Below, piece after piece: positions 5,234 through 26,079 of a stretch of DNA of 64,000 bases. Origin of the DNA: Escherichia coli O127:H6 str. E2348/69 (GTDB lineage Bacteria > Pseudomonadota > Gammaproteobacteria > Enterobacterales > Enterobacteriaceae); the NCBI RefSeq assembly GCF_000026545.1, contig NC_011601.1, one strand, 5' to 3'. The number at the start of each line of letters is the position of its first letter. Position 1 is the stretch's first letter. The notes below the pieces were generated by a model. That model did no database searches, had not been told where the DNA came from, and saw only the letters and a list, made by a program, of their open reading frames with translations. The position numbers were made by a program, and so were the translations under genes.

Positions 5234-6709
<1,476 letters not shown>

Positions 6710-7446: not shown

Positions 7447-7692
7447 GGTAACCGTCCCTCTCGAAGGATGTTTTTCAGTATCCGGCTAAAAGGGATGAGG
7501 CCATAAGACATAACAATTACAGAAGGAGTAACTTTCATTTGTTCCATGTTAACCACTTTTTCAGGGGTCCTTTTTTTAGATTATCCTGATTATAAACGAA
7601 GAATCCATTTACGGAATTTTTGTCTGCAAAATACTACTGTATTCAGGAGTAAATGGACGGCGATGTATCATCGCCGTCCATTTTTCGACATA

Positions 7693-8157: not shown

Positions 8158-8234
8158 TCCGTACGGTTCCTCTGTTTTTTATTCTTGCATTAATTTAGCG
8201 TCGTAATTACCCGATTTTCAAGATACTAATGAAA

Positions 8235-9535: not shown

Positions 9536-9596
9536 CGTTTCTCCTGGGTGTGGTCAGTAAAAATCTTAGCTTTTAATCATAGACCGTCTTTTGCGG

Positions 9597-10577: not shown

Positions 10578-10635
10578 GGTATCCGTTCTGCTGAAGTGTC
10601 ATGGCGTTGATTTTACGGTGACTCTTCGACAGTGA

Positions 10636-10660
10636 AAAGAAAAAAGGCCGCAGAGCGGCC
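10636..10660. repeat. attL core (direct repeat aaagaaaaaaggccgcagagcggcc)
   Basis: Identical 25-mer found again at 47095..47119; the hairpin ggccgcagagcggcc is the ihfA terminator stem. Confidence 0.85.
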
Positions 10661-10766
10661 ATAAACACAAACAAAAATCAATAAGTTAGATAATTATCAA
10701 AGACTTACAGACACACAAAAACACAGCCAACCACAACAAATAACAGGGATGTGGTCACTTTGTGGA

Positions 10767-11183
10767 TCATTCGCTCCCCTCTTTTTCCTTATTTCGTTGA
10801 ACGCCAATTGCGACACACGTACTAAGCAAATCTTTACATTTCTCTACATCTTCAGACTTACGCAATTTGATGCTTTTTACAGACTGCGGGCTACTGTCCG
10901 TAGCACGATACATCGTTATTTCAATATCATTTCGGTCTAAGAGTCCCATAATGGCTTTTGCAACCTCCACACCCTTCTTCGCGAAATCAAAGAACAGAGC
11001 AAGTTTATATGGATTTTCGACGGAAAAAACTTCAATTTTGCTAAAACCAACATCGTGTAGAGAAAAATATTGCTCAACCTCATCTCGAAGTTCTGGATCG
11101 CATACAATGTCTATTCTCCAGTACTGACCTAAATGCAAATCGCTATTAACTGTTTTTTCCACAACATCCTCCTTACCCAGCAA
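10767..11183 (-). CDS. hypothetical protein (cargo gene downstream of int, abutting attL)
   Basis: 138-aa ORF overlapping the int stop by 11 nt; acidic, no recognisable motif; no P2 counterpart at this position. Confidence 0.5.
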   Translation of the reverse strand: MLGKEDVVEKTVNSDLHLGQYWRIDIVCDPELRDEVEQYFSLHDVGFSKIEVFSVENPYKLALFFDFAKKGVEVAKAIMGLLDRNDIEITMYRATDSSPQSVKSIKLRKSEDVEKCKDLLSTCVAIGVQRNKEKEGSE

Positions 11184-12147
11184 TAGGATTAAATCTCACC
11201 GCATCCTGCAAGTAATCCGGCGCAAGATGGGCATAAATCATCGTTGTCTGAATCTTTGCGTGCCCCAGAATTTTCTGGAGCGTCAGAATATTGCCGCCGT
11301 TCATCATGAAATGACTGGCGAAGGTGTGGCGCAGCGCATGAACAGCCTGGCCGTCAGGAACATCAGGTGCGACCGTTTTGATGACATCGCGAACCAATGG
11401 ATAATCCAGCGTCGGAAACACCAGTTTCCCGCCCCGTTTTTTGATCTTTTCAAACAGGCTTTCAGAAATAGGAACGGTACGGTTTTTGCTGTTCTTCGTT
11501 TTTGAAAAAGTGATTCGACAATGAAGAACACGGCGCTGCTCCAGTGCCGCTACCTCGCCCCATCGCGCCCCGGTCGACAGAAGGATTTCGACAGCCAGCC
11601 GTTCATCGGGATTTTCAGCCAGTGCATCCAGCAACTGAACACATTCAGACTTACTCAGATATCCCATTTCGCGCTCGTTAACCTTCATTCCTTTAAGGCC
11701 TTGAACGGGGTTATCGTTAAGAAAATGGCCGGATGAGATGAGTGCGGTAAACATCGCGCTTAACGCCCCAATCTCTCGATTAATGGTGCTGGGCTGTATC
11801 CCCTGCTCTATCCTGGACACACGTAGCTCGGTGAGCATCGTTGTATTAAGTTTATGCACACACGGGTCATCCATTGCCTCACTCAAGCGCAGCAATTTAA
11901 GGCGCGTGTTATGCCCTGACTTCATTAGCTGGCCGTGGTATTTCCACCACAAGTCAATAAGCACCGACAGCGGACGGCGATCAATGGAGTTTCCTTTCCA
12001 CTCATTGTTATGCTGTTGCGCCAGCACCCACCGCTCATATAAAACTGCATCCGATTTCGTTTTAAATTTTTTGCGAATGCGTTTGCCTTTACGCCCCTCA
12101 GGGCGCATGTCAAGAAGATACCCTCCCGGAATTGATTTTATGCTCAT
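11173..12147 (-). CDS. int: P2-type tyrosine integrase
   Basis: Product from MSIKSIPGGYLLDMRPEGRKGKRIRKKF closely parallels P2 Int; C-terminal HALRHTFASHFMMNGG ... LGHAKIQTTMIYAHL catalytic motifs; the listed ORF extends upstream to 12297 but the P2-like start is the internal Met. Confidence 0.9.
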   Translation of the reverse strand: MSIKSIPGGYLLDMRPEGRKGKRIRKKFKTKSDAVLYERWVLAQQHNNEWKGNSIDRRPLSVLIDLWWKYHGQLMKSGHNTRLKLLRLSEAMDDPCVHKLNTTMLTELRVSRIEQGIQPSTINREIGALSAMFTALISSGHFLNDNPVQGLKGMKVNEREMGYLSKSECVQLLDALAENPDERLAVEILLSTGARWGEVAALEQRRVLHCRITFSKTKNSKNRTVPISESLFEKIKKRGGKLVFPTLDYPLVRDVIKTVAPDVPDGQAVHALRHTFASHFMMNGGNILTLQKILGHAKIQTTMIYAHLAPDYLQDAVRFNPIAG

Positions 12148-12196
12148 TCGTGAAACCCCAGCGTTACAAGACCACCATGCCCCCAGCGTTCCATGA

Positions 12197-12505
12197 TTAA
12201 CCGGGCTGTGTACCAGTCTTGCGGGATTTTTGAGAAGACGATGTGTTTTCTGGCCCATCAGGGGAGAGAGAGGGACTGATCTGCCCAGCAGCCTCATTTG
12301 TTTTTCCCGTCATAAGCCAATTCATGTACTTAAAAAAGCGAGGGTGATTAACAATCTTGATAAGCACTTCGCCCCCTATGTTTTCAATCCGCCCCGTTTC
12401 ATAACGACGCAAAGTGCCGATAGGCACATCAATCAGGCCGCAAAATTCTTCGCGCGTTAAATCCTCTGATTCACGAATCACTCTAATTTTTTCACCGATA
12501 AGCAT
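12197..12505 (-). CDS. C: immunity repressor C (HTH)
   Basis: 102-aa ORF; HTH segment and C-terminal GQISPSL ... SSSQKSRKTG resemble P2 C; divergent from the early operon. Confidence 0.8.
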   Translation of the reverse strand: MLIGEKIRVIRESEDLTREEFCGLIDVPIGTLRRYETGRIENIGGEVLIKIVNHPRFFKYMNWLMTGKTNEAAGQISPSLSPDGPENTSSSQKSRKTGTQPG

Positions 12506-12601
12506 TGACAGTGTTCCTATAAGTACACTAAGCTTGCGCGCAAGGTGTACTTATAAGTACACCAAGTCACAAACAACCACAGATAGCGCAGGTTATCACA
12601 C
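12506..12601. promoter_or_regulatory. immunity switch region with direct-repeat operators (Pe/Pc)
   Basis: Two copies of tataagtacac(t/c)aag about 33 bp apart, beside a ttgaca -35-like hexamer, between divergent C and cox-like genes. Confidence 0.6.
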
Positions 12602-12880
12602 ATGGCAAAAGTCCTGAACACACACGAACAGGCAGACTTTGAGCGTTTAGCAGCGTTCTATCCCTACCGCGATGAGCATGGGTTACCAGTACTTGAAGAA
12701 AGCCTGAAAGATTACGCAAAGCGTACCAACCAAGCTGTTAACACAGTGAAAAGACAGGCTGACAGAGGTTCAATTCCCATCAACCAGGATGAAAAGAACT
12801 CAAGACGCACAGTAAATCTCTTCGCTCTTTTCCTGAAAACAATCAGGAGCGCAGAAAAATACGTGCAGATGACAAAATAA
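12602..12880 (+). CDS. putative Cox/Apl-type early regulator and excisionase (positional call)
   Basis: 92-aa first ORF of the rightward early operon; no confident sequence similarity to P2 Cox. Confidence 0.45.
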   Translation: MAKVLNTHEQADFERLAAFYPYRDEHGLPVLEESLKDYAKRTNQAVNTVKRQADRGSIPINQDEKNSRRTVNLFALFLKTIRSAEKYVQMTK

Positions 12881-12894
12881 CGAGGTGTCATTTT

Positions 12895-13233
12895 ATGCTG
12901 AAGCAACGCCGTAATTTTCGTACCGGAACAGAACGCCACGCTAACCGTTTCACTACTAGTGCATCACGCAGCAACATCCGCTACAGCCTGAGTGATACAC
13001 ACGCAACGCCGGATGGCTACCCAGTAAAACAAATCGGCGAGCACGCCTGGCTGATTGAGAAAGCTGGAATCGTGATCCACAAATGCCCACGCAATCCGTT
13101 TACCGGAAACCGCATTTTTGCATTGAGCTGTGGTGACAATCAGTTCGGGCAGGATTTCACATTATACGAAGCACTTCGCACGGTTGATCGTCTGCTTCGC
13201 GGGCAAAGTTTTATTAAACAGGCTGATTTATAA
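12895..13233 (+). CDS. hypothetical early protein
   Basis: 112-aa ORF in early operon. Confidence 0.45.
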   Translation: MLKQRRNFRTGTERHANRFTTSASRSNIRYSLSDTHATPDGYPVKQIGEHAWLIEKAGIVIHKCPRNPFTGNRIFALSCGDNQFGQDFTLYEALRTVDRLLRGQSFIKQADL

Positions 13234-13243
13234 CAGGTGCTTT

Positions 13244-13531
13244 ATGACCAAAGACCATGCACAAGGTGTATTTATCCGTTTTATTGATTTTCGCGGTGAA
13301 CTGTTATTACGTGCATCCGCTATTGACGGAGTGACTCCGGCGGGTAAAAACGGAGCCGACGAAGCCACTTACGTTTATCTGAACGGCACGCGACTGCTTG
13401 CGGAACTTCCGTACCAGACCGTACGAGAAATCATTAGCGAAGCTGAAAAGGCACGCCAGGTTAATGGCGATGAACCCTATATCGAAATTATTTGTATGGA
13501 TTCAGAAGCTGAAATACAGAAAGCAGATTAA
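13244..13531 (+). CDS. hypothetical early protein
   Basis: 95-aa product from MTKDHAQGVF inside the listed 13130..13531 ORF. Confidence 0.45.
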   Translation: MTKDHAQGVFIRFIDFRGELLLRASAIDGVTPAGKNGADEATYVYLNGTRLLAELPYQTVREIISEAEKARQVNGDEPYIEIICMDSEAEIQKAD

Positions 13532-13539
13532 AGGGCGTT

Positions 13540-13785
13540 GTGATGGGCAAAGAATATAAAACTCTCATTAACAAAGCACTTGAGCGTTTTTATTTTCGCT
13601 TAAGTGCATCTGGCGCTCATGCTGAACGTGCGGCCCGTGACTCATTGACCAGAGCAATCCGAAGTCTGTATGACGTGGCTTTTTACGCTGATGATCTGGA
13701 TGCACTTAACGAACTTTCCGAGCTGATCTGTGCCGCAGAATGCGGGGAACATATTGAACCGTATAAGCTGGGAAATATCGCATGA
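13540..13785 (+). CDS. hypothetical early protein
   Basis: 81-aa ORF. Confidence 0.45.
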   Translation: MMGKEYKTLINKALERFYFRLSASGAHAERAARDSLTRAIRSLYDVAFYADDLDALNELSELICAAECGEHIEPYKLGNIA

Positions 13786-13895
13786 GTATATTTATCTCAT
13801 GGCTTGTTCTGATTATTTCGGTGGTCTGCGCCATTGGGATTATGCGAATTATTAATTCAGTAAAAAAGATTGAACGCTTTTTCACTGAAGAATAA
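13782..13895 (+). CDS. small hydrophobic protein (37 aa, one TM helix)
   Basis: ATGA-overlapped with the previous ORF; MSIFISWLVLIISVVCAIGIMRIINSVKKIERFFTEE; below the 60-aa track cutoff, found by eye. Confidence 0.35.
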   Translation: MSIFISWLVLIISVVCAIGIMRIINSVKKIERFFTEE

Positions 13896-14940: not shown

Positions 14941-17763
14941 ATGACGGCAGAGTACATCAGGGACTGGCAACAACCGCGCCACGCAGTGGGGCGTGAAGGA
15001 ACGGGGATCCCCGCTCCTGAATCCGCGCTTTCCTCCTGGCTGGATGCCTACCGGGCAGAGAACGAGCACCGCCAGGAAATGGCTGATGCGGCGTTCTCCG
15101 CCACGCCGCTGGGCAACCTGATTAATAAAAGCCTGGACGCACAGGAAAAACAGGACAAAACCATCACACTGGCAGGAGACGCCAGAAAACAGGCACGCGG
15201 CGCGGTGGATGAAGCCATGGCCTCGCTGCGCCTGCTGCCGTCCTATCTGCGCGATCCGCTTATTCGCCACCTCTCCTTCCTGCGCAAAAAACAGGAAGCC
15301 GATCGTCAGAAAGGAAAAAACGCCAGGCAGGCAGAACGCTATGCGCGTGGGACCCTGCGCAAAATATTCGAACGTCTGGAGCGCACCGATCACCGCTGGC
15401 TGACACCGGGTTATCGCTCCCTTGCCGGACGCGAACGCCTGGACGATTTGCTTTACCTGCCGCAGCTCAACAAACACCAGATAAAGACGCTGGCAACCAT
15501 GACGGCGGCGATGTTCAGCAGCACCTTCGAAAAACTCTGCGATGGCTTTGGCGCGACCGATGGCGAGCTGACCATGGATGTAACCCTGAAGGCGTATCAG
15601 ATGCTGGCCCGCATGGCGTTACACCTGCACGCCATGCCTCCACATTATGACGCACTGACAACAGACAAAGACCGGAGGAACGAACCGGACACGGAGCTGC
15701 TGCCGGGCGCAATCCTTCGCCTGACCTGTGCGGAATGGTGGAAACGCAAACTGTGGCTGTTACGTTGCGAGTGGAGAGAAGAACAACTCCGCGCCGCCTG
15801 TCTGGTTTCCAGAAAAACATCGCCCTATCTGAGCCAGGACGCGTTAAGCGAGTTTCGCGCACAGCGCGAGAAAACACGCGATTTCCTGAAAAGTTTCATG
15901 CTGGAAAACGAAGACGGGTTCACGATTGATCTCGAGACAGTGTATTACGCGGGAGTAAGTAACCCGGTTCACCGTAAGGCAGAAATGATGGCCACCATGA
16001 AGGGACTGGAACTTCTGGCCGAAGCCCGTGGCGACAGAGCGGTGTTTCTGACTGTCACCTGCCCGTCAAAATACCACGCAACAACGGAGAACGGTCATCC
16101 GAACCCCAAATGGAACGGGGCCACCATGCGCGACTCCAGCGATTACCTGGTTAACACGTTTTTTGCGGCGGTCCGCAAAAAACTGAACCGCGACGGCCTG
16201 CGCTGGTATGGCATCCGCACGGTGGAGCCTCACCATGACGGCACCGTGCACTGGCATATGATGGTCTTTGCTCATCCGGAAGAAATCGACAGCATCGTGA
16301 CCATCACCCGCGATATTGCCATTCAGGAAGACCGCCACGAGCTGGGCAATGATATTACTCCGCGCTTTAAGGTGGAGTACGTCGACGGCACCAAAGGCAC
16401 GCCAACCAGCTACATCGCCACCTACATCGGAAAAAACCTGGACAGCCGCGCCGTGGATGGCATCGACCCGAAAACGGGCAAACCACGCGTTGACCACGAA
16501 ACCGGAAAATCAATGGCCGAGAGCGTGGAGCGCGCCATCGGTTGGGCACGCCTTCACCGGGTCCGCCAGTTCCAGTTCTTTGGCATCCCCTCCCGTCAGG
16601 TGTGGCGTGAACTCCGCCGCCTTGCCAGCCAGATGGCACGCAACCCGGAAGGCCCGCAACGGCTGAAGGATGACGCAATGGATGCGGTACTCGCTGCCGC
16701 TGATGCCGGATGTTTTGCCACCTACATAGAGAAACAGGGCGGTGTACTTGTTCCACGCAAAGACTACCTGATTCGCACCGCCTACGACCTCGCCGATGAG
16801 CTGAACGATTACGGCGAACAGAGTGTACAGATTTACGGGATCTGGTCACCACTCATCGGGGAATCCTCCCGTGTGTGCACGCACCCGGATAACTGGAAGC
16901 TGGTAAGACGTAAACCGGAACAGGAAGGCAGCGCCCACGAAAATGGTTTTGACCTTCAGGGCGGCCCTGCCGCCCCTTGGACTCGTGGCAATAACTGTCC
17001 CCGTGTACAGGAAACGGACAACAACGGGACAGAACAGCCGGAAGAACGGCCAGCACCGTGGCCGCAGCTCCCTGACGGCGTTGAAGTGAACGAATGGGTG
17101 CGCTCACTGAAACGGCACGAACGCCGGGCGCTGATGCGTTCGCTTCGTGACAAACAGGCAAAAAACAGCAGTGATGAAATGCAGAGCTGGACACAGAGCC
17201 GCAAACAGCAGCGGCCTTTGCCTGATAACCACGAATTACTCGCTAAAGAATGGCGGGAGTCTGCTGAATCTCTCGGCCTGCATATCGGTGAACAGCAGAT
17301 GCAGCACCTGTTACGGGGCGGCAGCCTGTACGTTGACGGCAGCATCATTGCACCGCAGGGATATGAAATTGTACGTAAACCGGATACCCGCCCGGACAGC
17401 CGAATCACGCAGCTCTGGCAACGCCTGAGCCGTAACCACGGCGTAAGCAGCACGGAGATCCGCCATAACCCGGTCGCCAGCTATCTGGAACAACTAGGGG
17501 CATCAGACCCTGAAGCCGCCGCACGCCTGGCATCCACACTTCAGCAAGACCAGAACACCATGAAAACACCCGTTACCGTACTTTCTGACATGCTGCGCGC
17601 CATCCGCGACGCAGAGCACGAACAGAGAATCAGTGAAACAACTGAACGCGCCCGCCGCAAAGCAGACCTGCTGCGGGGTGGCCTGACCAGTGGAAACAAA
17701 AAACAGACAAAAACGGGATTCACAAATCCCGTAAATGAGCAAAAAACGCGCCGCGATATATGA
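14941..17763 (+). CDS. A: replication initiation endonuclease, P2 gpA family (rolling-circle initiator)
   Basis: 940-aa ORF; HHDGTVHWHMMVF (HUH-type) and YIATYIGKN (catalytic Tyr) motifs; about 180 aa longer than P2 A. Confidence 0.85.
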   Translation: MTAEYIRDWQQPRHAVGREGTGIPAPESALSSWLDAYRAENEHRQEMADAAFSATPLGNLINKSLDAQEKQDKTITLAGDARKQARGAVDEAMASLRLLPSYLRDPLIRHLSFLRKKQEADRQKGKNARQAERYARGTLRKIFERLERTDHRWLTPGYRSLAGRERLDDLLYLPQLNKHQIKTLATMTAAMFSSTFEKLCDGFGATDGELTMDVTLKAYQMLARMALHLHAMPPHYDALTTDKDRRNEPDTELLPGAILRLTCAEWWKRKLWLLRCEWREEQLRAACLVSRKTSPYLSQDALSEFRAQREKTRDFLKSFMLENEDGFTIDLETVYYAGVSNPVHRKAEMMATMKGLELLAEARGDRAVFLTVTCPSKYHATTENGHPNPKWNGATMRDSSDYLVNTFFAAVRKKLNRDGLRWYGIRTVEPHHDGTVHWHMMVFAHPEEIDSIVTITRDIAIQEDRHELGNDITPRFKVEYVDGTKGTPTSYIATYIGKNLDSRAVDGIDPKTGKPRVDHETGKSMAESVERAIGWARLHRVRQFQFFGIPSRQVWRELRRLASQMARNPEGPQRLKDDAMDAVLAAADAGCFATYIEKQGGVLVPRKDYLIRTAYDLADELNDYGEQSVQIYGIWSPLIGESSRVCTHPDNWKLVRRKPEQEGSAHENGFDLQGGPAAPWTRGNNCPRVQETDNNGTEQPEERPAPWPQLPDGVEVNEWVRSLKRHERRALMRSLRDKQAKNSSDEMQSWTQSRKQQRPLPDNHELLAKEWRESAESLGLHIGEQQMQHLLRGGSLYVDGSIIAPQGYEIVRKPDTRPDSRITQLWQRLSRNHGVSSTEIRHNPVASYLEQLGASDPEAAARLASTLQQDQNTMKTPVTVLSDMLRAIRDAEHEQRISETTERARRKADLLRGGLTSGNKKQTKTGFTNPVNEQKTRRDI

Positions 17764-17839: not shown

Positions 17840-18799
17840 ATGAAAATTTGTATCGACGACGGCTCCACCAACATCAAGCTGGCATGGACTGAGAACGGCG
17901 AACACCGCAACGCCATCAGCCCGAACAGCTTCAAGTCGGAATGGTCTGCGCCGTTCGGTGGCACGCAGCCCGCGAACTACATGCTTGATGGCGTGCGCTA
18001 TGGTTTTGATCCGGTCAGCGATCGCTTTGTCCAGACGACCGACACGCAATACCAGTACAGCGATGTGAATGTCATTGCCATTCATCATGCGCTGGTCAAA
18101 TCAGGCATCACGCCACAGGAGGTGGATGTGGTTGTCACCCTGCCACTGAGCGAGTATTTCGACACAAACGCACAGCCGGACATGGCCAACATCAACCGCA
18201 AAAAAGCGAACGTTATGCGCCCGGTGGAGTACCAAAACGGCGAGGCATTCACTATCCGTAACGTGCGGGTTATGCCTGAATCCATTCCGGCTGGCTTTAA
18301 AGCACTGGCTGACATGAGTCCGTTTGAATCCCTGCTGATTGTGGATTTGGGCGGAACCACGCTGGATGTGGCAAAGGTTCAGGGGCAACTGGCAGGTATC
18401 AGCCAGGTGTTTTGCGATCCACACGTAGGCGTTTCTCTGATGGCCGATGCCGTGCTGTCGGTGATGGCCACCAACGGTATGCGCACCAGTCACCACATCG
18501 CCAATACCATTATCGAACATCGCCACGATGAAGCCTGGCTGCGCCAGCACATCCACAATGACGCGCATTACGCCAGCCTGATGGCAGTTATTCGTGAAAA
18601 GGAGGAAACACTGAAACAACGCGTGATCCGCGCGCTGGCGGTTTTTTCGGGTTACGGGCGGGTGATGGTTGTCGGTGGAGGGGCGGAGATTGTGGCACCC
18701 GCTATCCGCGAAGCCTGCGGAGTTAATGCGACTTTCATCGCGGACGGGGTGCCACAGTTTGCTCTGGTTAATGGGCTGTACGCAATGGACAAGGAGTAA
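17840..18799 (+). CDS. ParM/StbA-type actin-like segregation ATPase
   Basis: 319-aa ORF; N-terminus MKICIDDGSTNIKLAWTE and the segments YSDVNVIAIHHAL, VMPESIPAG, LLIVDLGGTTLD, VMVVGGGAE parallel plasmid R1 ParM (StbA) along the whole length. Confidence 0.8.
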   Translation: MKICIDDGSTNIKLAWTENGEHRNAISPNSFKSEWSAPFGGTQPANYMLDGVRYGFDPVSDRFVQTTDTQYQYSDVNVIAIHHALVKSGITPQEVDVVVTLPLSEYFDTNAQPDMANINRKKANVMRPVEYQNGEAFTIRNVRVMPESIPAGFKALADMSPFESLLIVDLGGTTLDVAKVQGQLAGISQVFCDPHVGVSLMADAVLSVMATNGMRTSHHIANTIIEHRHDEAWLRQHIHNDAHYASLMAVIREKEETLKQRVIRALAVFSGYGRVMVVGGGAEIVAPAIREACGVNATFIADGVPQFALVNGLYAMDKE

Positions 18800-18803
18800 A
18801 CCA

Positions 18804-19115
18804 ATGACGACTCCAACCAGACGGATAAGTTTCTATCTGAAGCCCACCGCCGTCAAGAACGAAGGAGAAGCATGCGCCTGGCTGGACAGCCTTACACCAG
18901 AAGCCCGCAAAAGCGGCCAACGCGTGGCTTTTCTGGCCGGGCTGGCACTTCTGAAAATGAATCCGGCAGAGGCTTACCGACTGGCTGCATGGGCTGATGA
19001 TGAGGTGTTATCAGTGACACAAACCAAGACAGAACGCCCCGCGTCACAGCCAGTATCAACCGCACAGATAACCAGTCAGATGGCCGGAAATATCCGGGCG
19101 TTATTTCCTGAATAA
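18804..19115 (+). CDS. ParR/StbB-like adaptor protein
   Basis: 103-aa product from MTTPTRRISFYLKP inside the listed 18669..19115 ORF; N-terminal region parallels R1 ParR (RRxIxFxLxP ... LDS ... AGLAL); follows the parM-like gene. Confidence 0.6.
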   Translation: MTTPTRRISFYLKPTAVKNEGEACAWLDSLTPEARKSGQRVAFLAGLALLKMNPAEAYRLAAWADDEVLSVTQTKTERPASQPVSTAQITSQMAGNIRALFPE

Positions 19116-19493
19116 CATCAGGGCGTATTCGCCCTGCCACCAATCCCATAACATAAAGAACGGGGTGCAAATCACTATACACCCCGTTCCAATACAAACC
19201 ATCAGAAGATCTACACATCTTTCTCAAATGGCCAAGTAATCGAGCTGGTTCAGGAATAAGCATGCTGCCAACACAAGTGAAGGAGATAAAACTGTAGAAC
19301 TGATCAATCGTTGGAAACAAGTATTGACAGTATGTTCGAGTAACCCAACTGGATAGATTTTATGCTGATTATCCATACAGTAAAAAAGTAAGGATACTCT
19401 TTGAATTACGCCAGCAAGAGTGGTAACATTAGTCAATGATTTTCATTAATGTAGTTACCAGCTTACACAAGCTGATGTTTTATTGGGGGTTTT

Positions 19494-20576
19494 ATGGTAA
19501 ACGTGAGGGAGGATGAACTTTTCAAACTCATCGAGCAAGGCATCAAAGGCAACGCAAATGCATTTACACTCCTATGCAGAAAGATGATTAACAACATCCG
19601 TAAAAATGATGAGGCTTTAGCTTCTAAGCTGGCTTCGTTAGTTGCTGAGGGAACAGTATTACGTGGGGCATCTAGTAAGGCTCCTATGCCTGTGGATGGA
19701 GACTCCAGACGAAACCTTTTGCAGGAAACATCTGTCAACGCAATTGTTGAAGAACCTGTATGGAATACGGATATCTCAAAGAAGCTGGAGTCAATTGTTA
19801 ACGAAAGAGAGAATGCGGTTTCTTTGTTCAAAGCTGGTCTTGAACCTGTGAAGACGGTTTTACTTTCTGGCCCGCCAGGCGTAGGCAAAACAATGTCCGC
19901 ACATTGGCTTGCTGCAAAGTTAAATTTACCTCTTTTAACATTGGATCTCTCATCTGTAATGAGTTCTCTTTTGGGAAAAACAGGTAATAATATTAAATCC
20001 GTTATGGATTATGCCAAAGAGAAACCATGTGTCCTTTTGCTTGATGAATTTGATGCTGTTGCAAAAAGACGTGATGATGACAGGGACGTTGGAGAATTAA
20101 AACGTTTAGTTACTGTACTCCTACAGACCATAGATGAGTGGCCAGCGACCTCGCTTCTTGTTGCTGCGACTAATCACCCTGATATCTTAGATCCGGCTGT
20201 TTGGCGTCGATTTGAGCACATCCTTAAATTTAATATGCCATCAGTAGAACTGATAGATAGATATTTAGTCAATCATAATATTGAACCTGAACTATCTAAA
20301 AAACTTGCACCATTATTAGATGGCATGTCCTTTGCCATCATTAACCGTATTTTGAATTTCTCCAAAAAGAATGAGGTACTTAGAAATATTCCATTTGAAA
20401 GCTCATTAATAGAAGCCGTAATTACGGAGAGGGTTTCATTGGATGAGTTTAGCGATAATGATCTCAATATAATTAAATATCATTTTGACGGTTTTTCAAA
20501 TAGGAAGATAGCTGAATTAGTTGGTGTTTCACATCCAACAATCGCGAATAAATTACAAAAGTGGGGGATTAAATGA
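19494..20576 (+). CDS. AAA+ ATPase with C-terminal HTH-like segment (candidate defence component A)
   Basis: 360-aa ORF; Walker A LLSGPPGVGKT, Walker B VLLLDEFDAV, sensor-1/Arg-finger ATNHPDILDPAVWRRF; C-terminal NRKIAELVGVSHPTIANKL; AT-rich codon usage. Confidence 0.8.
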   Translation: MVNVREDELFKLIEQGIKGNANAFTLLCRKMINNIRKNDEALASKLASLVAEGTVLRGASSKAPMPVDGDSRRNLLQETSVNAIVEEPVWNTDISKKLESIVNERENAVSLFKAGLEPVKTVLLSGPPGVGKTMSAHWLAAKLNLPLLTLDLSSVMSSLLGKTGNNIKSVMDYAKEKPCVLLLDEFDAVAKRRDDDRDVGELKRLVTVLLQTIDEWPATSLLVAATNHPDILDPAVWRRFEHILKFNMPSVELIDRYLVNHNIEPELSKKLAPLLDGMSFAIINRILNFSKKNEVLRNIPFESSLIEAVITERVSLDEFSDNDLNIIKYHFDGFSNRKIAELVGVSHPTIANKLQKWGIK

Positions 20577-22777
20577 TGGAAAGGAACTTACTTTTAGGTA
20601 ACGGTCATGTTCTGACAAAAAAGGAACCTTTGCCTAAAGGAAGGGATGGTAAGCGCTATCCCTATACTCTTGAAGAAGTAAGGGAGCATTTAAACCCAGA
20701 GATTGATACTTTACTCTCACGCTTTCGCAGTTTGGATGATGCGGCTAAGCCAAGGGGGGAGAGTGTATTCAATTTAACTTTACACCCAGCGTTTTTGGGT
20801 AAAAGCTACTTTCCGGAAGGATTGCTTAGAGCGACAGGTTTACGGGATGTCGGCAGCCGTCAGGTAATCATTCGCCCACGGAAAGCGGCACGTCAGTGCG
20901 ATCAGAATAAGGACTTAGTAACGGCGCAACTGTTTGTTAGCGGTGATGATGATGCCGTTATAAGATTTAAGGAAATTTTAAATTCCCCTACAGCTCCGAA
21001 GGGCGTACAAAAGGATTTGATCGAAATTGAAAGTGTTAGCTTTTTTGAAGGAAAAGAGAGAGCACGCAATTTTGAGCATGCGAAAAGTGATTTGATAAAA
21101 TTTGAAGTGGTTCTTCATGCTGGGGTTGAAGACGATGATATCGTTAAAGCCTATATTAGCTATGCGGCACAATATGATGTCTCTGTTGATTACAAAAGTA
21201 GAATCCAAGTTGGTGGGCTGACTTTCATCGTTGCACACGCGCGACCTGAAGATATGAAAAAAACACTCGATTTTTCATTAATCCGCGTTGTGCGGCCGAT
21301 GCCGTCTCTCAGGTGTACTCAGCCGAACATTGTCAGAAAGTTATCTAATATAGTTACACCGGAGCTCCCTAATTCTAAAGCTGTTCTTGAATCCGAACGT
21401 ATTGCCATTTTTGATGGTGGCTTGGGGACAGCTGACTTGAGTAATTGGGTTACGGAATACGTGTATCCAGACACCAAAGAAACAAGCGGATTATTATTGC
21501 AGCACGGTAATGAAGTGACATCCACTTTCTTATTCGGACGTGTCGAGGAAAATGCACCTTCTTTTAAAAGACCGTTTATGAATGTAGATCATTATAGAGT
21601 TCTTTCACCGACATCAGGTGACAATGGCAATTGGGATTTATTTGATGTCCTTAAGAAAATACAGTCCGTTCTTGATAGTGGTGACTATAAGTTCGCTAAT
21701 CTAAGTATTGGTCCTCATCTTCCAATTGGTGATGATGAGGTTCATGTATGGACTGCTGTTTTAGACCAAATCTGTGCTAAGCATGGGATATTACTTACTG
21801 TTGCTGTTGGGAATGATGGCAATGAGGACGGTGATGCAGCGAGAATACAACCTCCTTCCGATATGGTAAACGCGCTAGCGATTGGTGCTGCTGATCGTAG
21901 CGGTGAAAAATGGGGGCGGGCACCATATAGCTGTATTGGGCCAGGCAGAAGCCCCGGATTCGTTAAACCTGATGGTGTTATTTTTGGTGGAAGCGACGAC
22001 GAGCCTTTTTACACTTACAACCCTCTGCTTGGTTCTATAGTTGGAGTTCAAGGAACCAGTTATGCCTCTCCATTAGCATTGAGAACGGCCGCTGGAGTTG
22101 CGGCTCTATCAGGAACTCCATTGAACACCATTGCATTGAAAGCGTTGCTTGTTCATCATGCTGAAACATCAAGAAAATATTCGCGTGAACATATCGGTTG
22201 GGGACGGTTTAGTGAGGATCCTAACGTTTTAATCGATTGTCCAAATGATACTGCTACAGTAATTTACTATGGTTCATTAGCAAAAAATAAATATTTAAGG
22301 GCACCGATCCCATTCCCTGATGTTCCCTTTGACGAAGCATTTGAGCTTACCGCTACTTTATGCATTCAAACCCCAGTAGATCCTGAACATTCAGTAAACT
22401 ATACAAGGGCCGGTATGCAGGTAACTTTCCGCCCAAGATTCGGCCTTGACGATACCGATACAGATGATTTCTTTGGTCAAAAAAGCCAGTATAAGACTGA
22501 AAGGGAGTGTAGGAGTGAAGGTCATAAGTGGGAAACTTGTTTGCACAGAAGCAAAAAGTTCAGTGCTGATACATTATTAAGCGATCCAGTTTTTGATATA
22601 CGGTATCATGCCCGAGATTCTTCGCGCCATGTTAAGGGAGTTTCAGCCCCTGATATGCAATATGCGATGGTAATAAGCGTAAGGGTAAAAGACTTTGATT
22701 TATATAATGTTATTCGCCAGCGATATACAATTCTGAATCCTATTCAACTGCGCACACAAATTTCTCTCGACACGTAA
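20573..22777 (+). CDS. subtilisin-like S8 serine peptidase, large multidomain, no signal peptide (candidate defence component B)
   Basis: 734-aa ORF, ATGA-overlapped with the ATPase gene; S8 motifs in order: Asp IAIFDGGLG, His LLQHGNEV, Asn VAVGNDGNEDG, Ser GVQGTSYASPLAL; about 260-aa N-terminal and 200-aa C-terminal extra regions. Confidence 0.8.
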   Translation: MMERNLLLGNGHVLTKKEPLPKGRDGKRYPYTLEEVREHLNPEIDTLLSRFRSLDDAAKPRGESVFNLTLHPAFLGKSYFPEGLLRATGLRDVGSRQVIIRPRKAARQCDQNKDLVTAQLFVSGDDDAVIRFKEILNSPTAPKGVQKDLIEIESVSFFEGKERARNFEHAKSDLIKFEVVLHAGVEDDDIVKAYISYAAQYDVSVDYKSRIQVGGLTFIVAHARPEDMKKTLDFSLIRVVRPMPSLRCTQPNIVRKLSNIVTPELPNSKAVLESERIAIFDGGLGTADLSNWVTEYVYPDTKETSGLLLQHGNEVTSTFLFGRVEENAPSFKRPFMNVDHYRVLSPTSGDNGNWDLFDVLKKIQSVLDSGDYKFANLSIGPHLPIGDDEVHVWTAVLDQICAKHGILLTVAVGNDGNEDGDAARIQPPSDMVNALAIGAADRSGEKWGRAPYSCIGPGRSPGFVKPDGVIFGGSDDEPFYTYNPLLGSIVGVQGTSYASPLALRTAAGVAALSGTPLNTIALKALLVHHAETSRKYSREHIGWGRFSEDPNVLIDCPNDTATVIYYGSLAKNKYLRAPIPFPDVPFDEAFELTATLCIQTPVDPEHSVNYTRAGMQVTFRPRFGLDDTDTDDFFGQKSQYKTERECRSEGHKWETCLHRSKKFSADTLLSDPVFDIRYHARDSSRHVKGVSAPDMQYAMVISVRVKDFDLYNVIRQRYTILNPIQLRTQISLDT

Positions 22778-22782
22778 TTTTT

Positions 22783-22806
22783 ATGGCCGCGAAAGCGGCC
22801 TTTTTT
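22783..22806 (+). terminator. rho-independent terminator after the ATPase/S8 operon
   Basis: ggccgcgaaagcggcc stem followed by tttttt. Confidence 0.7.
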
Positions 22807-23281
22807 CTGTAATTTTTTTATGAATTTACATGCACGATAGTGCACAAATTTGCACAATTTTTTTGAACGAATTTTTGCCCTTCTGGCCCGCGTGGCGGCT
22901 GGATCCGTCAGGGATCCGTGCGTGCACAAAAAAACGCGCTTTTTCTGCGCGCAGGTGACGGGGGAACAGCCCGCGTTTCAGGGGGTAAATAGCATCCCCT
23001 GAACGATGTCGCAGCGACACAACAGAATGGCTGTATTTCTCACGCTGAGCGTGAAAAAGACGTGAGGGCTTTTGATTTGATGGGGTGACAGATAAGGCCG
23101 TCAAAATCGCACTGAGGCGGCGAGAACATGCAGTCAACGCGGTGGGATTGCGTAAGAGCCTGACCGTCGATGATGGCGATAAGCTGGAAGACGTCGTGAA
23201 ATTATCTGATTGATACAGGAGCTGGAGAGTCGGGGCATAAATTTTTTATGCCCCGACGAAGCAGCAGACAAGCGAAGCGCG

Positions 23282-24328
23282 TCAGGATGTGGGCTGGGTG
23301 TCTAACAGTGCGTAAGGGTTAAAGCGGATCACCTCTTCGCCAAGCCAGTCATTGATGTGCTTCATAGCCTCCATAACGGGCATCAGCTCGTTAATTGCAT
23401 AAACCCGCGCGGCCTTCTCCACATCACCAAACGCACTTTTTTCGCCCGGCATCGCCCCCATCAGTTGCGGCGGAACGCGGTGCGCAGCCAGTACATCATC
23501 ACGGGATGCCGCCTTAACATTCATGAACTCATCCTTTGCGGTGATCTGCTGGAACGGCAAAATTTGCACCCCCTCTTTGCCCCCGTTGGGCGCATGAATG
23601 AGCACGTTTTTAAATGCACCACCACCACGCGCACCCTGTAACGTTTCTTTCAGGGAGTCCATGCTTTCGCGGTTTACCTGCGCTGCACCGATGTAGATGA
23701 TGCACCCGGCGTGGGATCCGTTGTCGTAGTACAGTTTTCTGAACATGTCCGCCGAATGAGAAAGGCTGGCCGAGAGTAATGCGCCAAGATATTCCGGCAT
23801 GCCGTAGATTTCCTGGTTAATATCCGGATTCATCAGGTGGCATACTTTGCCAGGGCGAAACTGAAACGCGTCCTTACCATCCTGCACATACCACCATGAT
23901 TCAAGATCGCTTCCGCGTCGCATGTATTTCGCCAGGGCGTGCCGTAATTTAAGCGGTTCGCCGAGCATATTGCTTCGAAGCTCAAGGAATGCATTACCGA
24001 ACACAAACCAGTCCAGCGCCAGCGCCGAGAAATCCTGCCGGGAAAGCAGCGGGTGCGGGATGTAGCAACCGAGTAATACATTGCGCTTAAAGTAAAGCGC
24101 AGACTGATGCCAGGACGTTTGCCGGGCTGCTCTTGCCAGACCGTACCAGTCCACCGGGGTTTCATACCACCGCCCGTTATCAGCACAGTACATATTGTCC
24201 AGCAGGTCATGCCCGGTCAGGCGATAAGGACCATCAAATGTGAATGCACTGAGCGATGATTCTTTCCTGAGCGCATCAGCGAGATCAATGCGTGAACTCA
24301 TGCGCACTTTTTTGTTTTTTCTGCTCAT
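23282..24328 (-). CDS. Q: portal protein
   Basis: 348-aa ORF; P2 gpQ length and position; adjacent to and co-oriented with terminase. Confidence 0.85.
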   Translation of the reverse strand: MSRKNKKVRMSSRIDLADALRKESSLSAFTFDGPYRLTGHDLLDNMYCADNGRWYETPVDWYGLARAARQTSWHQSALYFKRNVLLGCYIPHPLLSRQDFSALALDWFVFGNAFLELRSNMLGEPLKLRHALAKYMRRGSDLESWWYVQDGKDAFQFRPGKVCHLMNPDINQEIYGMPEYLGALLSASLSHSADMFRKLYYDNGSHAGCIIYIGAAQVNRESMDSLKETLQGARGGGAFKNVLIHAPNGGKEGVQILPFQQITAKDEFMNVKAASRDDVLAAHRVPPQLMGAMPGEKSAFGDVEKAARVYAINELMPVMEAMKHINDWLGEEVIRFNPYALLDTQPTS

Positions 24329-26079
24329 CAGAACTCCATAACCGTGAAACGCTCGTTTTCTCCTTCGCCGCCAATCGGTTCGTTAATGACAGCAAGCATG
24401 GTTGCCCACGCAAGGTCGCCGTGGCTGATCCCCCTCGCGCGGTCCGTTTCGTAAGTGATAAAGCCGCCCGGTGTTTTCACCTTACGCACGGCGTTAAAGG
24501 CCGCGACCAGCTCGCGTTCGGCGCGATCGTATTCCCACCGCCCGGCACGCATTATGTGCAGCATTTTCAGTACCAGCGACCGTTTTGATGACAGCGTGAA
24601 GGTGTACGGAATAGCAGCAGGGAAAAACCGTTTCACTATCTGATAAACAGCCTCCCCGTTCCCGCCCGTCACATCAATGCCGATGTGTTCCACGTTGTAG
24701 CGATACGTGAACTCTTCAATGACTCTGGCCTGTTCTTCAAACTCCAGCCCTTGAACGCGTCGCGTCTCCACCGTTCGAAAACGGCCACCAGGAACAGCCG
24801 GAGGAACCACCACGGACACAGCGCCGCTGTCGCCGTTGCCACTACTGCCGTTTGCGTCATACCCAATCCATACCGGACGATTCCCCATCGGGCGGGGAGC
24901 AAAAGGTTTCCAGTCTTTCCAGTCGTCGTATCCGTCAACACCGCAGCCAATCAGGATATTCAGGTTAAATGCCGATTCCCCTTCGCGGACAAACTCACAC
25001 ATATAGAGATTGAGGAACTCGTCTTCGGTGTTTTCATCACGAATTTCGTCGATATCAGTGTGTTTCCAGCCGTGATTAACCACATCTTCCAGCGTGACAA
25101 TTTGCCGCCACGTCCGGTCAGGGCAGATAAGCCCGTTATGCAGCGTTTTCCAGTCCACAGAAAAACGCTGGCGTTTATGCGAGGCCTTTTTCTCATTCCA
25201 GCGGTCGCCGTTCCAGTAGGCGTATGCCTCGTGCGTTTCGGTGGATGGCGTGGAGAAGTAGGTGCGCCGCAGTCCGCTGAGGGTTGCCATAGCGCCAGCC
25301 ACCTTGCGCAGTTCAGCAAAGCGACTGACCCAGAAAAATTCATCAAAATAAAAATTGCCCGTATAGGACTGTGCCGACGCAGCAGAAGTGCCGAGAAAAT
25401 GCAGCTCTGCGCCGTTGGAGAGGATGATTTTATCGCCCCCTTTCAGCTCCACATCAACTTCAGCCGCGGCCTTCTGAATAATGCTTTTAAACTGGAACGC
25501 CTGACGACGCGACGCAGACAAAAAAATCTGGTTACGCTGGTAAGGTTGCGCCACATCGTCACGCAGCGCCATCAGCAGTGCTTCCTGTGCAAAATACCAG
25601 GTCGCCCCAATCTGTCGGGATTTCAGGATCATCCTGTTACGTATCCCGGCTTCCCTGCAAAGGGTCAGGGAGTCAAACCAGCCCCGCTGATGCCACTCCA
25701 GCCTGCTGATGATTTTTTCCCGCAGTGCGGCAATCTGTTCCGGCGTGAAATGATTTTTGAGTTTTTTCGCCCGGCCTTTCTTTCCTGCGGCCGTCGCATC
25801 CGGCTGGCCATCATGCAGCTTTTTAAGCTGCCGGGTCAGCAGGTCTATTTCCTTAAAGTCACCGCCTGTTTTATTCTGTTTTTCAGTAAGCTGGATGAGA
25901 CGCGCATCGATGGACTGCGTGACACGCTGCACGGGTGGCGTTTCATCCCACTGGTCACGTTTTTTCCACGCATAAATCGTGTTCGGGTTTATTCCCATCA
26001 GACGTGATATTTCTGCGGGCGGATAACCCTGCCAGTAAAGTTGCCGCGCACGCTGGCGCACAAAAGCGTCCTGAATCAT
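24328..26079 (-). CDS. P: terminase large (ATPase) subunit
   Basis: 583-aa ORF; P2 gpP length and position; overlaps the Q start. Confidence 0.88.
   Translation of the reverse strand: MIQDAFVRQRARQLYWQGYPPAEISRLMGINPNTIYAWKKRDQWDETPPVQRVTQSIDARLIQLTEKQNKTGGDFKEIDLLTRQLKKLHDGQPDATAAGKKGRAKKLKNHFTPEQIAALREKIISRLEWHQRGWFDSLTLCREAGIRNRMILKSRQIGATWYFAQEALLMALRDDVAQPYQRNQIFLSASRRQAFQFKSIIQKAAAEVDVELKGGDKIILSNGAELHFLGTSAASAQSYTGNFYFDEFFWVSRFAELRKVAGAMATLSGLRRTYFSTPSTETHEAYAYWNGDRWNEKKASHKRQRFSVDWKTLHNGLICPDRTWRQIVTLEDVVNHGWKHTDIDEIRDENTEDEFLNLYMCEFVREGESAFNLNILIGCGVDGYDDWKDWKPFAPRPMGNRPVWIGYDANGSSGNGDSGAVSVVVPPAVPGGRFRTVETRRVQGLEFEEQARVIEEFTYRYNVEHIGIDVTGGNGEAVYQIVKRFFPAAIPYTFTLSSKRSLVLKMLHIMRAGRWEYDRAERELVAAFNAVRKVKTPGGFITYETDRARGISHGDLAWATMLAVINEPIGGEGENERFTVMEF

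Follow-up and report, generated by a model that had tools for sequence, protein, structure and literature searches.

A complete ietAS operon carried as exchangeable cargo by a P2-like prophage of Escherichia coli E2348/69

Introduction

What is the role of the AT-rich gene pair encoding an AAA+ ATPase and an S8 subtilase in a P2-like prophage of Escherichia coli E2348/69? The pair lies in the window analyzed here, a stretch of 64,000 nucleotides of contig NC_011601.1, and a first-pass annotation of these letters had recognized in it the IetAS architecture, with Gao et al. 2020 as its source. The identity holds, but not the first description since, by the accounts given in PMC5006074 and PMC13069673, ietAS was described earlier as a plasmid toxin-antitoxin (TA) system of pTiC58 (Yamamoto, 2009), made up of a serine protease toxin and an AAA ATPase antitoxin. 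Our analysis shows that the ietAS operon at this locus is complete and apparently functional, and that it is carried as exchangeable cargo in the prophage's gpA-cos-portal hotspot. This exact locus has already been catalogued as ietAS: it is not new, but a real and ordinary member of the system.

Organization of the locus

The elements of the locus are as follows:

19137..22823, + strand: swappable ietAS cargo cassette, 3687 bp, AT-rich, its ends being set by backbone homology with UTI89
19494..20576, + strand: ietA, AAA+ ATPase (antitoxin by homology), from PADLOC, Pfam and invariant motifs
20573..22777, + strand: ietS, S8 subtilase (toxin/effector by homology), from PADLOC, Pfam and invariant catalytic residues
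22785..22806, + strand: intrinsic terminator of the ietAS operon, GGCCGCGAAAGCGGCC followed by T6, from hairpin search and folding
19401..19429, + strand: candidate ietAS promoter, TTGAAT-17 nt-TGgTAACAT (extended -10), weak and read by eye
19119..19136 and 19158..19189, no strand assigned: two very stable hairpins at the left cassette junction, from the folding of 19119..19189

Open reading frame calling gave two overlapping genes on the + strand, both starting with ATG and encoding 360 and 734 aa, respectively, which are joined by a 4-bp ATGA overlap at 20573..20576. The non-coding leader (19116..19493; 378 bp, GC 0.397) extends from the stop codon of the parR-like gene (19113-19115) to the ATG of ietA at 19494, and 261 bp 5' of ietA move with the cassette in phage phiT5282H. 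The terminator begins 8 nt past the ietS stop codon and folds at -13.7 kcal/mol (z = -3.6). The overlap, the co-travelling leader and the strong terminator are operon traits occurring together; every checkable detail previously given for the coupled pair, its AT-rich leader and its hairpin terminator was confirmed. The GC content amounts to 0.39 in ietA, 0.43 in ietS and 0.411 in the entire cassette, in comparison with 0.565 in the gpA/parMR flank and 0.538 in the portal/terminase flank.

The hairpins at the left junction fold at -30.6 kcal/mol (z = -7.4), a stability equaled by none of 200 shuffled sequences, and they are possibly the terminators of parMR or a recombination boundary. In the consensus scan of 19116..19493, no + strand promoter site with at least 9 of the 12 consensus matches was detected. 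In 31 divergent loci, the region 5' of ietA contained no recurrent operator-like inverted repeat, so that autoregulation of ietAS by the helix-turn-helix (HTH) of IetA is unsupported.

Sequence features of IetA and IetS

IetA matches the PADLOC model PDLC02196 (3.6e-89) practically end to end, residues 7-356 of 360 being aligned with profile positions 5-370 of 374, and three more PADLOC IetA models also match it. The Pfam domains AAA (122-247, 1.9e-30) and HTH_50 (335-359, 1.5e-5) were identified. The codons of the functional residues, which were checked, and the approximate extent of the HTH are as follows:

19869..19892, + strand: Walker A of IetA
19968..19976, + strand: aliphatic pore-loop L159-L160-G161 of IetA
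20043..20048, + strand: Walker B residues D184/E185 of IetA
20172..20174, + strand: sensor-1 residue N227 of IetA
20205..20210, + strand: Arg fingers of IetA
about 20481..20573, + strand: C-terminal HTH of IetA (HTH_50)

The Walker A (GPPGVGKT, 126-133) and Walker B (LLLDEFD, 181-187) motifs, including K132/T133 and D184/E185, as well as N227 and the Arg fingers R238/R239, are invariant in 43 homologues. The intact AAA+ motifs and the HTH-like tail initially attributed to the first gene are thereby and by the HTH_50 match confirmed. IetA is probably a hexameric remodelling ATPase of the classical AAA+ clade; the closest solved structures are those of the unfoldases p97/Cdc48 D2 and PAN. Since its pore-loop-1 consists of Leu-Leu-Gly in place of an aromatic residue, processive unfolding by IetA is less likely. 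As the Pfam search identified no metalloprotease domain in IetA, the protein is not FtsH.

IetS likewise matches its PADLOC model end to end (PDLC02197, 6.6e-41; residues 22-707 on profile positions 24-718 of 749), together with five more IetS models, and Peptidase_S8 was found by Pfam at 288-544. These full-length matches agree with the IetAS-like identity put forward at the outset. The regions of IetS and its catalytic codons are the following:

20573..21382, + strand: aa 1-270, N-terminal tail, helix and two prodomain-like beta-alpha-beta-beta-alpha-beta modules
21386..22207, + strand: aa 272-545, S8 core
22238..22759, + strand: aa 556-729, C-terminal beta-sandwich
21413..21415, + strand: catalytic D281
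21503..21505, + strand: catalytic H311
21812..21814, + strand: catalytic N414
22058..22060, + strand: catalytic S496

The S8 set read from the letters was recovered as D281 (FDGG), H311 (HGNEV), N414 (GNDG) and S496 (GTSYA), N414 being the oxyanion Asn and the other three the catalytic triad, all invariant in 45 homologues. A crude Kyte-Doolittle scan detected neither a hydrophobic N-terminal segment nor a transmembrane-like segment in IetS, in keeping with the signal peptide having been reported as absent; on this hydropathy scan, which gave no export signal, IetS is predicted to be cytoplasmic. The N-terminal tail shows strictly conserved residues (N5, L7, L8, G11, and L14). The flanking domains, which the annotation had proposed for structure prediction, were modelled as N-terminal prodomain-like modules and a C-terminal beta-sandwich. 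The model resembles unprocessed pro-subtilases, with which it aligns over 318-376 residues, the modules being placed N-terminal to the catalytic domain. Those pro-subtilases (ProN-Tk-SP 3afg, pro-subtilisin E 3whi, and fervidolysin 1r6v) are secreted and have one cleavable prodomain, whereas IetS is predicted to be cytoplasmic, has an ATPase partner and carries, besides its conserved N-terminal tail, a long helix and two modelled prodomain-like modules.

The absence of a consensus promoter in the leader might be taken to indicate that the cassette is a decaying, inactive remnant. This is highly improbable in view of the two reading frames, which are full length with respect to both the homologues and the profile models, the intact catalytic residues, and the preserved gene overlap and terminator; in addition, many unrelated E. 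coli hosts harbour copies with 99.9% identity, and an isolated Enterobacter phage has one with 96%.

Assignment to the ietAS family and previous records

The two genes are adjacent and co-oriented, in the order A then S. The specific matches in NCBIfam were limited to the anti-phage models NF042959 (IteA) and NF042956 (IteS), with scores falling well short of the equivalog cut-offs (IetA, 253 bits compared with 510; IetS, 116 bits compared with 900), as was also the case for three further variants from the P2 slot. The locus is therefore a family member belonging to a divergent subfamily rather than an equivalog of the tested reference, and its function is transferred across roughly 25-45% identity.

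In the catalogue by Rousset et al. (2022; PMC9122126, Table S5), WP_000248600 and WP_000970615 constitute P2-hotspot system 7, with 400 occurrences, labelled "ietAS (Gao et al 2020)" and Peptidase_S8 | AAA. The present locus does not differ from it in accessions, slot or StbA/Plasmid_stab_B neighbours: IetA is 100% identical to the sequence in Table S5B, and IetS is identical over its first 399 aa. It had been considered that the HTH tail and the additional domains of the protease may mark a distinct variant; judging from the homologous sequences, they are common to the whole clade, and hence denote no new variant, and the "AAA/HTH_50 + Peptidase_S8" architecture was already recorded by Rousset et al. 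(PMC9122126). System 7 was catalogued by these authors, and is absent from their list of tested systems. A PADLOC ietAS call in E2348/69 spanning 3284 bp, which is the exact combined length of ietA and ietS here, was reported by Wu et al.; the ietAS cloned by the latter authors from ECOR52 is a different variant, since their primers have no match in the window. Our literature search found no phage-plating, toxicity or stability tests of the P2-slot ietAS clade.

Prophage context and exchange of the cargo

The cassette is flanked by the following backbone genes:

14941..17763: replication endonuclease gpA, upstream of the parM-like and parR genes
17840..18799, + strand: parM-like partition gene, left backbone flank (RefSeq annotation of the identical locus; PHROGs 1.7e-90)
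18804..19115, + strand: parR/StbB-like partition gene, left backbone flank (RefSeq annotation of the identical locus; PHROGs 2.4e-58)
22824..24328, - strand: right backbone flank, consisting of the cos-proximal non-coding region and portal gene Q
23282..24328, - strand: portal gene Q
24328..26079, - strand: terminase P, next after Q

The location of the pair in the P2 accessory slot between gene A and cos/Q, as originally proposed, is supported by the RefSeq context of E2348/69, and the cos-adjacent P2 hotspot has been described (PMC9122126). The content of this slot proved to be variable, as anticipated, within a constant backbone from gpA to cos/portal. Backbone homology with UTI89 stops at 19136 and restarts at 22824, and with 06-00048 the junctions are at 19165 and 22831; in both cases, the same flanks enclose unrelated cargo. 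Conversely, the isolated Enterobacter phage phiT5282H shares 19233..22975 at 95.8% identity and carries the same cassette behind a different gpA. In divergent P2-like phages, homologous pairs (38-47% identity) are located in this same slot between gpA and the portal gene. Thirty E. coli genomes contain the cassette at an identity of 99% or more, and 75 of the 80 related viral loci have kept the ietA-ietS pair, even where identity falls to about 25-35%, which argues against a chance pair of reading frames.

The position of the protease gene about 500 bp from the portal gene, along with the AAA+/FtsH-like labels present in phage records ("ftsH" in phiT5282H, for example), might suggest a morphogenesis or housekeeping pair, for example a protease for prohead maturation and its chaperone ATPase, or else a general proteostasis module. 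This explanation is effectively refuted: separate genes exist for the P2-type scaffold/protease gpO and for the capsid, most otherwise near-identical prophages, including sisters that share the structural genes, lack the cassette, the GC content of the cassette sets it apart from the backbone, and the FtsH label conflicts with the lack of a metalloprotease domain. The PHROGs families concerned, phrog_3757 and phrog_3964, are dedicated families of unknown function and not those of prohead or housekeeping proteases; membership of the latter is what the annotation had named as counting against its proposal.

The pair directly follows parM/parR, which both fall in the PHROGs class "partition protein" and lie outside the cassette, and this arrangement recurs in several E. 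coli loci. The module may therefore serve mainly for addiction, post-segregational killing stabilizing, together with parMR, a possibly episomal P2-like element, with defence as a secondary effect. According to PMC5006074 and PMC13069673, ietAS was discovered as a plasmid-stability TA system of pTiC58, and sgiAT of SGI1 promotes maintenance of its island; in addition, Rousset et al. (PMC9122126) have suggested that prophages of this kind may be able to remain in the cell as plasmids by means of their partition genes. However, among 5426 E. coli genomes, 1306 contain parMR genes, whereas ietAS occurs in only 33, and no ParM homologue was detectable beside ietAS in phiT5282H and the divergent P2-like phages, so that parMR and ietAS are not linked. 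The slot is moreover a documented defence hotspot (PMC9122126), and anti-phage activity has been demonstrated in homologues. Stability as the main role is possible, though somewhat unlikely, and the two roles are not mutually exclusive.

Comparison with known systems

The operon resembles the IetAS of pTiC58 and the anti-phage ietAS of Gao et al. 2020 in its order, ATPase then protease, and in combining a classical AAA+ protein with a large cytoplasmic S8 subtilase. It differs from them in belonging to the divergent P2-slot clade, which was compared through family profiles. SgiAT of Salmonella Genomic Island 1 also consists of an AAA-ATPase antitoxin and a subtilisin-like toxin carried by a mobile element; its TA activity was demonstrated, its identity to the pTiC58 IetAS proteins is 50% and 36%, and in both systems the toxic partner is the protease, with the ATPase as its antitoxin (PMC5006074). 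SgiAT is located on an integrative mobilisable island, whereas the P2-slot ietAS is located on a phage.

The ietHAS type of chromosomal ietAS in E. coli (E24377A type; Liu et al., 2026; PMC13069673) shares the IetA and IetS core with this locus. In the E24377A-type operon, this core is preceded by an SNF2 helicase and followed by a type III RM system, whereas no SNF2-family helicase gene (ietH) was found in the present cassette, parM/parR being located upstream. The E24377A-type proteins (326 aa for IetA and 795 aa for IetS) are 31% and about 22% identical to those described here, respectively, and the alignment to IetA stops before the HTH tail. In ietHAS, defence requires the protease, and ietA mutants could not be cloned, as is to be expected of an antitoxin (PMC13069673).

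The ietAS of Bacillus cereus m1293, which bears the same name, acts by abortive infection and becomes toxic once YosG of SPbeta is expressed (Stokar-Avihail et al., bioRxiv 2022.08.27.505566). Of the systems compared, it is the most informative about how ietAS may act. Its host is Gram-positive, its phages are those of such a host, and the trigger has no known coliphage counterpart. The P2 genes old and tin occupy the same gpA-cos-Q slot and play the same role, namely prophage-encoded exclusion of competing phages, but their proteins and mechanisms are unrelated to those of ietAS.

Proposed mode of action

On the basis of the homologues and the anatomy of the locus, the most likely mechanism is that toxic IetS would be neutralized by ATP-dependent IetA until infection lifts the block, resulting in abortive infection. 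As an explanation of the whole, the ietAS identity combined with this mechanism is very probably right. IetS would be an intracellular protease, the activity of which is toxic to the cell, and IetA might keep it harmless by holding it, unfolding it or turning it over, while autoregulation of ietAS may be a further function of the IetA HTH. On infection of the lysogen by a competing phage, IetA would no longer be able to neutralize IetS, owing either to a phage product or to the effect of that product on the cell, and the freed protease would then cut essential host and/or phage proteins and abort the infection before progeny release. Sister lysogens, and therefore the prophage, would thus be protected, and the same addiction logic could also stabilize the element carrying ietAS. 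Because ietAS, as far as the sources cited above recount its history, was first described as a TA system with the ATPase as antitoxin, IetA is better called an antitoxin than a proven sensor of infection.

The roles might also be reversed, IetS being a zymogen autoinhibited by its prodomain-like modules, and IetA an activator which senses infection and uses ATP to strip or unfold the prodomain, as in the ATPase-gated protease put forward by the annotation. The two I9/prodomain-like modules modelled immediately before the catalytic domain, the alignment with unprocessed pro-subtilases and the unfoldase clade of IetA are in line with this idea, and the conserved tail of IetS could be an engagement tag. 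In homologous systems, however, the protease is toxic by itself and is neutralized by the ATPase, and the failure to obtain ietA-mutant constructs of ietHAS (PMC13069673) is the reverse of what would be expected if IetA were an obligatory activator. With the aromatic pore-loop residue also missing, activation by IetA is quite improbable.

Returning to neutralization by IetA, a more specific version can tentatively be envisaged as an "energy-dependent zymogen lock", which is rather unlikely to hold in full: a hexameric IetA with a non-aromatic pore would engage the strictly conserved tail of the pro-subtilase-like IetS, to which two prodomain-like modules are covalently attached, and would continuously lock it or turn it over, the HTH would repress the operon, and any phage product that blocked the ATPase or caused a collapse of ATP or translation would allow IetS to mature and kill the cell. 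No paper describing this mechanism in the case of IetAS was found in our literature search.

Location and organization of the ietAS cassette

According to the RefSeq annotation, a P2-like prophage is inserted between btuC and ihfA, at about 10.8-46.8 kb of the window. Its left part carries the integrase, the early genes, the replication endonuclease (gpA), ParM, ParR/StbB, ietA and ietS, followed by the portal and terminase genes and then by P2-type head, lysis and tail genes. The cargo position between gene A and cos/Q proposed in the first-pass annotation was thus found here, with gpA and the parMR genes on the left and the portal gene on the right. The ietAS block comprises the following features:

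19494..20576, + strand: ietA, ORF of 360 aa
20573..22777, + strand: ietS, ORF of 734 aa
22785..22806: terminator hairpin GGCCGCGAAAGCGGCC followed by a T-run, starting 8 bases past the ietS stop

The two ORFs overlap by the ATGA at 20573..20576, and the GC content of the cassette is 0.411, as compared with a backbone GC content of 0.565 on the gpA/parMR side and 0.538 on the portal/terminase side, which bears out the description of the pair as coupled genes in an AT-rich block. The non-coding lead-in of 378 bp (19116..19493), which begins after the parR-like stop codon and leads up to the ATG start codon of ietA, has a GC content of 0.397, and the terminator folds with -13.7 kcal/mol (z = -3.6).

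The strains UTI89 and 06-00048 share the gpA-parMR and portal-terminase backbone with 96-98% identity and carry unrelated small genes between parMR and the portal gene. The backbone homology ends and restarts at 19136 and 22824 in the case of UTI89 and at 19165 and 22831 in that of 06-00048. Since it ends at 19136 and restarts at 22824, the cassette was delimited as 19137..22823. Two very stable hairpins (19119..19136 and 19158..19189; together -30.6 kcal/mol, z = -7.4) sit exactly where the homology to these prophages ends (19136 and 19165); they may be parMR terminators, a recombination boundary of the cargo slot, or both.

The converse situation, the same cargo between other flanks, was also encountered, as expected of a slot with variable contents. 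In phiT5282H, an Enterobacter phage of the Peduoviridae, a copy of the cassette matching 19233..22975 of the window with 95.8% identity adjoins the 3' end of a different gpA, and parMR is missing. The genes encoding IetA and IetS occur in this order in 75 of 80 related viral contigs, the remaining ones being cut by contig ends. Members of the clade occupy this slot in many divergent P2-like phages as well, an IetA/IetS pair showing 38-47% identity lying between gpA (31-44% identity) and the portal gene (45-72%). A second E. coli variant, with 43% identity in IetA and 38% in IetS, was found in the IMG/VR contigs L057-L061, of which the backbone is nearly identical to that of the E2348/69 prophage (gpA 87-96%, portal 99%) and in which ietAS is located directly 3' of gpA, without parMR. 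In contig L057, the genes are placed as follows:

about 5773..6894: ietA
6918..9143: ietS

The ParM/ParR (StbA/StbB-type) plasmid partition pair lies at 17840..19115, between gpA and the cargo slot, and Rousset et al. (PMC9122126) have speculated that it lets the prophage be maintained like a plasmid. As an alternative that does not rule out defence, ietAS might have a role in stabilization or addiction, perhaps jointly with parMR. An obligatory linkage between the two is not supported, however: the parMR flank is present in 1306 of the 5426 complete E. coli genomes and the ietAS cassette in 33, and both phiT5282H and L057-L061 do without parMR.

Family assignment and previous records

Both proteins match PADLOC profiles over essentially their full length: PDLC02196 in the case of IetA (3.6e-89, residues 7-356) and PDLC02197 in that of IetS (6.6e-41, residues 22-707); several additional PADLOC IetA and IetS models also match. 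The IetAS-like reading of the pair proposed previously is therefore upheld by end-to-end matches. The only specific NCBIfam matches were "anti-phage ATPase IteA" and "S8 family anti-phage peptidase IteS", neither of which reached its equivalog cut-off (253 bits against 510 for IteA, 116 bits against 900 for IteS). The P2-slot variants L057, L051 and L020 all scored far under these cut-offs, which ruled out a P2-slot variant as the NCBIfam (Gao) reference. Judged by its sequence, the locus truly belongs to the IetAS family, within a subfamily distinct from that reference. In PHROGs, each of the two proteins has a family of its own without assigned function (phrog_3757 and phrog_3964). Since these are not prohead proteases, the prohead-protease reading, which would have told against the first-pass annotation, was discarded; an FtsH reading was also rejected, as Pfam showed no metalloprotease domain. 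The RefSeq labels are "AAA family ATPase" (WP_000248600) and "S8 family peptidase" (WP_000970615).

The slot between gpA and the cos-adjacent gpQ has been surveyed across all E. coli genomes by Rousset et al. (2022; PMC9122126), who list "Peptidase_S8 | AAA" in their Table S5B as system 7, with 400 occurrences and the label "ietAS (Gao et al, 2020)". The four proteins they give are those of the window. Translation of 19494..20573 yields exactly the IetA sequence printed in that table, and the 399 residues printed for IetS also agree with the window without a difference. Table S1 of Wu et al. (bioRxiv 2022.08.21.504612) includes a PADLOC "ietAS" call in E2348/69 (NC_011601.1, 1875494-1878777), of which the 3284 bp are the exact two-gene span. 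Since the locus is catalogued in both tables, the present analysis has correctly identified, once more, a known system that is detected automatically, and its value as a discovery is small: PADLOC finds the locus by itself and two published tables (hotspot and strain) include it. The variant tested by Wu et al. is another one, since the primers used for ECOR52 match neither the window nor the locus of strain E24377A.

The E24377A chromosomal locus itself differs markedly from that of the window. Its IetA (326 aa) shows 31% identity, with an alignment to the IetA of the window that stops at residue 301, and its IetS has 795 aa instead of 734, with an identity of about 22%. Next to it lie a type III RM system and the gene for an SNF2 helicase, and the "ietHAS" described by Liu et al. 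(2026; PMC13069673) is of this type. At 3030..13793 of the E24377A record (L003, NC_009801.1), the genes encoding the SNF2 helicase, IetA, IetS, a DNA methyltransferase and a DEAD/DEAH helicase are co-oriented, the last two being type III RM-like. This single block explains the co-localization of ietAS and RM III that has been reported in the literature.

Conserved features of IetA and IetS

The AAA+ motifs of IetA are intact, as had been read from the sequence: Walker A GPPGVGKT (126-133), Walker B LLLDEFD (181-187), sensor-1 N227 and the arginine fingers R238/R239. The Pfam AAA domain was matched at 1.9e-30, and the HTH-like C-terminal tail corresponds to HTH_50 (residues 335-359, 1.5e-5). 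Among 43 homologues ranging from Enterobacteria to Pseudomonas, Burkholderia and Ralstonia, the residues G333, R337, I339, A340, H347, P348 and T349 of this tail are invariant, and most IetA homologues in the databases show a Pfam match to HTH_23 or HTH_50.

The search for solved structures returned none of IetA or IetS. The closest ones to IetA are the p97/Cdc48 D2 ring, NVL, Rix7 and PAN, which are hexameric unfoldases of the classical clade. Pore-loop-1 consists of S158-L159-L160-G161 (window 19965..19976), in which L160 and G161 are invariant and L159 is conserved in at least 90% of the sequences. The residue at this site is aliphatic, whereas an aromatic one is usual in substrate-threading AAA+ unfoldases; a conserved aliphatic loop would be more typical of weakly translocating rings.

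In IetS, the complete Asp-His-Asn-Ser set claimed for gene 2 consists of D281, H311, N414 and S496, arranged in the order canonical for subtilases; the Pfam Peptidase_S8 match covers residues 288-544. A crude hydropathy scan showed neither a hydrophobic N-terminus nor any TM-like segment, in line with the predicted lack of a signal peptide. Conservation across the whole 730 aa, including the N- and C-terminal regions, was seen in 45 homologues, and many positions are invariant. The AlphaFold model, based on 45 sequences (pLDDT 85, pTM 0.88), comprises the following parts:

aa 1-32: N-terminal tail
aa 33-53: long helix
aa 64-157 and 175-242: two beta-alpha-beta-beta-alpha-beta modules
aa 243-271: linker
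aa 272-545: subtilase core
aa 556-729: C-terminal beta-sandwich

The large flanking domains expected from the first reading are thus seen in the model on either side of the core. The suggestion that the HTH tail and these extra domains might mark a distinct variant was not sustained, both being universal in the clade (43 IetA and 45 IetS homologues).

When the N-terminal 272 residues were modelled separately (pLDDT 83), the top matches were subtilase prodomains, namely those of ProN-Tk-SP (8.3) and pro-kumamolisin (7.2), followed by the PCSK9 prodomain (6.9), POIA1 (6.3) and the BPN' prodomain (5.9); these are modest values, and generic ferredoxin-like folds rank in between the prodomain matches. 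The tail (aa 1-30, window 20573..20662) carries the strictly conserved residues N5, L7, L8, G11, L14, K27, P30 and Y31. Since it forms short strands in the full-length model (pLDDT 60-75) and is disordered in the N-domain model (pLDDT 44-57), the models suggest that it docks on the catalytic or the C-terminal domain; it could serve in docking or in engagement.

Possible mode of action

In the IetAS of pTiC58 and the SgiAT of SGI1, the toxin is the protease and the antitoxin the AAA ATPase, according to PMC5006074. Defence by ietHAS requires the protease activity, and ietA-mutant constructs were unobtainable (PMC13069673). The ietAS of B. cereus shows abortive-infection behaviour and turns toxic upon expression of the SPbeta protein YosG (bioRxiv 2022.08.27.505566). 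By analogy with these systems, the present ietAS most likely works through an IetS restrained by IetA and released by infection: IetA would depend on ATP to keep IetS, a zymogen-like protease of the cytoplasm, from doing harm, infection by a competing phage would disable this control, and the freed IetS would cleave essential proteins, so that the infected lysogen would die or arrest, thereby protecting the prophage population. It might be proposed instead that IetA switches IetS on, the ATPase being an activator of the protease, which would fit the prodomain-like anatomy of the IetS model but conflicts with the genetics of the homologues.

The practical value of the locus lies in its being a compact 3.7-kb variant, with its own leader and candidate promoter, in the well-studied pathogen EPEC E2348/69. 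Being native to E. coli, tractable and provided with a confident structural model, it could serve as a mechanistic entry point.

Regulatory elements

The promoter scan of the 378-bp leader detected no sigma-70-like site on the + strand with at least 9/12 matches, and such sites were not enriched in the region as a whole (10 observed vs 8.8 expected). One candidate was read by eye:

19401..19429, + strand: candidate ietAS promoter with an extended -10

Operators were sought as perfect inverted repeats with arms of at least 6 bp in the 160 bp 5' of ietA, both in the window and in 31 divergent loci. The repeats were not enriched over shuffles (mean best repeat arm 2.97 vs 2.51), and autoregulation by the IetA HTH is therefore a guess. 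The leader hairpin at 19459..19474 was rejected as a structured element, its stability resembling that of shuffles (z = 0.09). The Rfam scan of 18800..23400 yielded no family and a single sub-threshold "Histone3" stem-loop match (22760..22805, - strand, 32 bits vs a gathering score of 34), which was dismissed as a chance resemblance because it coincides with the ietAS terminator hairpin.

Other accessory loci in the window

In the tail module of the prophage, at about 36776..38362, opposite-strand fragments of tail-fibre genes adjoin a gene annotated as "recombinase family protein" (37661..39247 in L001, a record of the E2348/69 locus), an arrangement that resembles an invertible segment for host-range switching. 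At the prophage end near ihfA, at about 45427..46833 (17168..18574 in L087, another E2348/69 record), two extra genes surround ogr: gpD and ogr are separated by an unannotated hypothetical gene of 221 aa, and ogr is followed by a toxin gene of the Hok/Gef family. Both are possible additional positions for accessory cargo. The chromosomal flank contains, at about 54978..55758 (8243..9023 in L087), a frameshifted pseudogene of a ShET2/EspL2-family type III effector, with yniD and thrS on its two sides.
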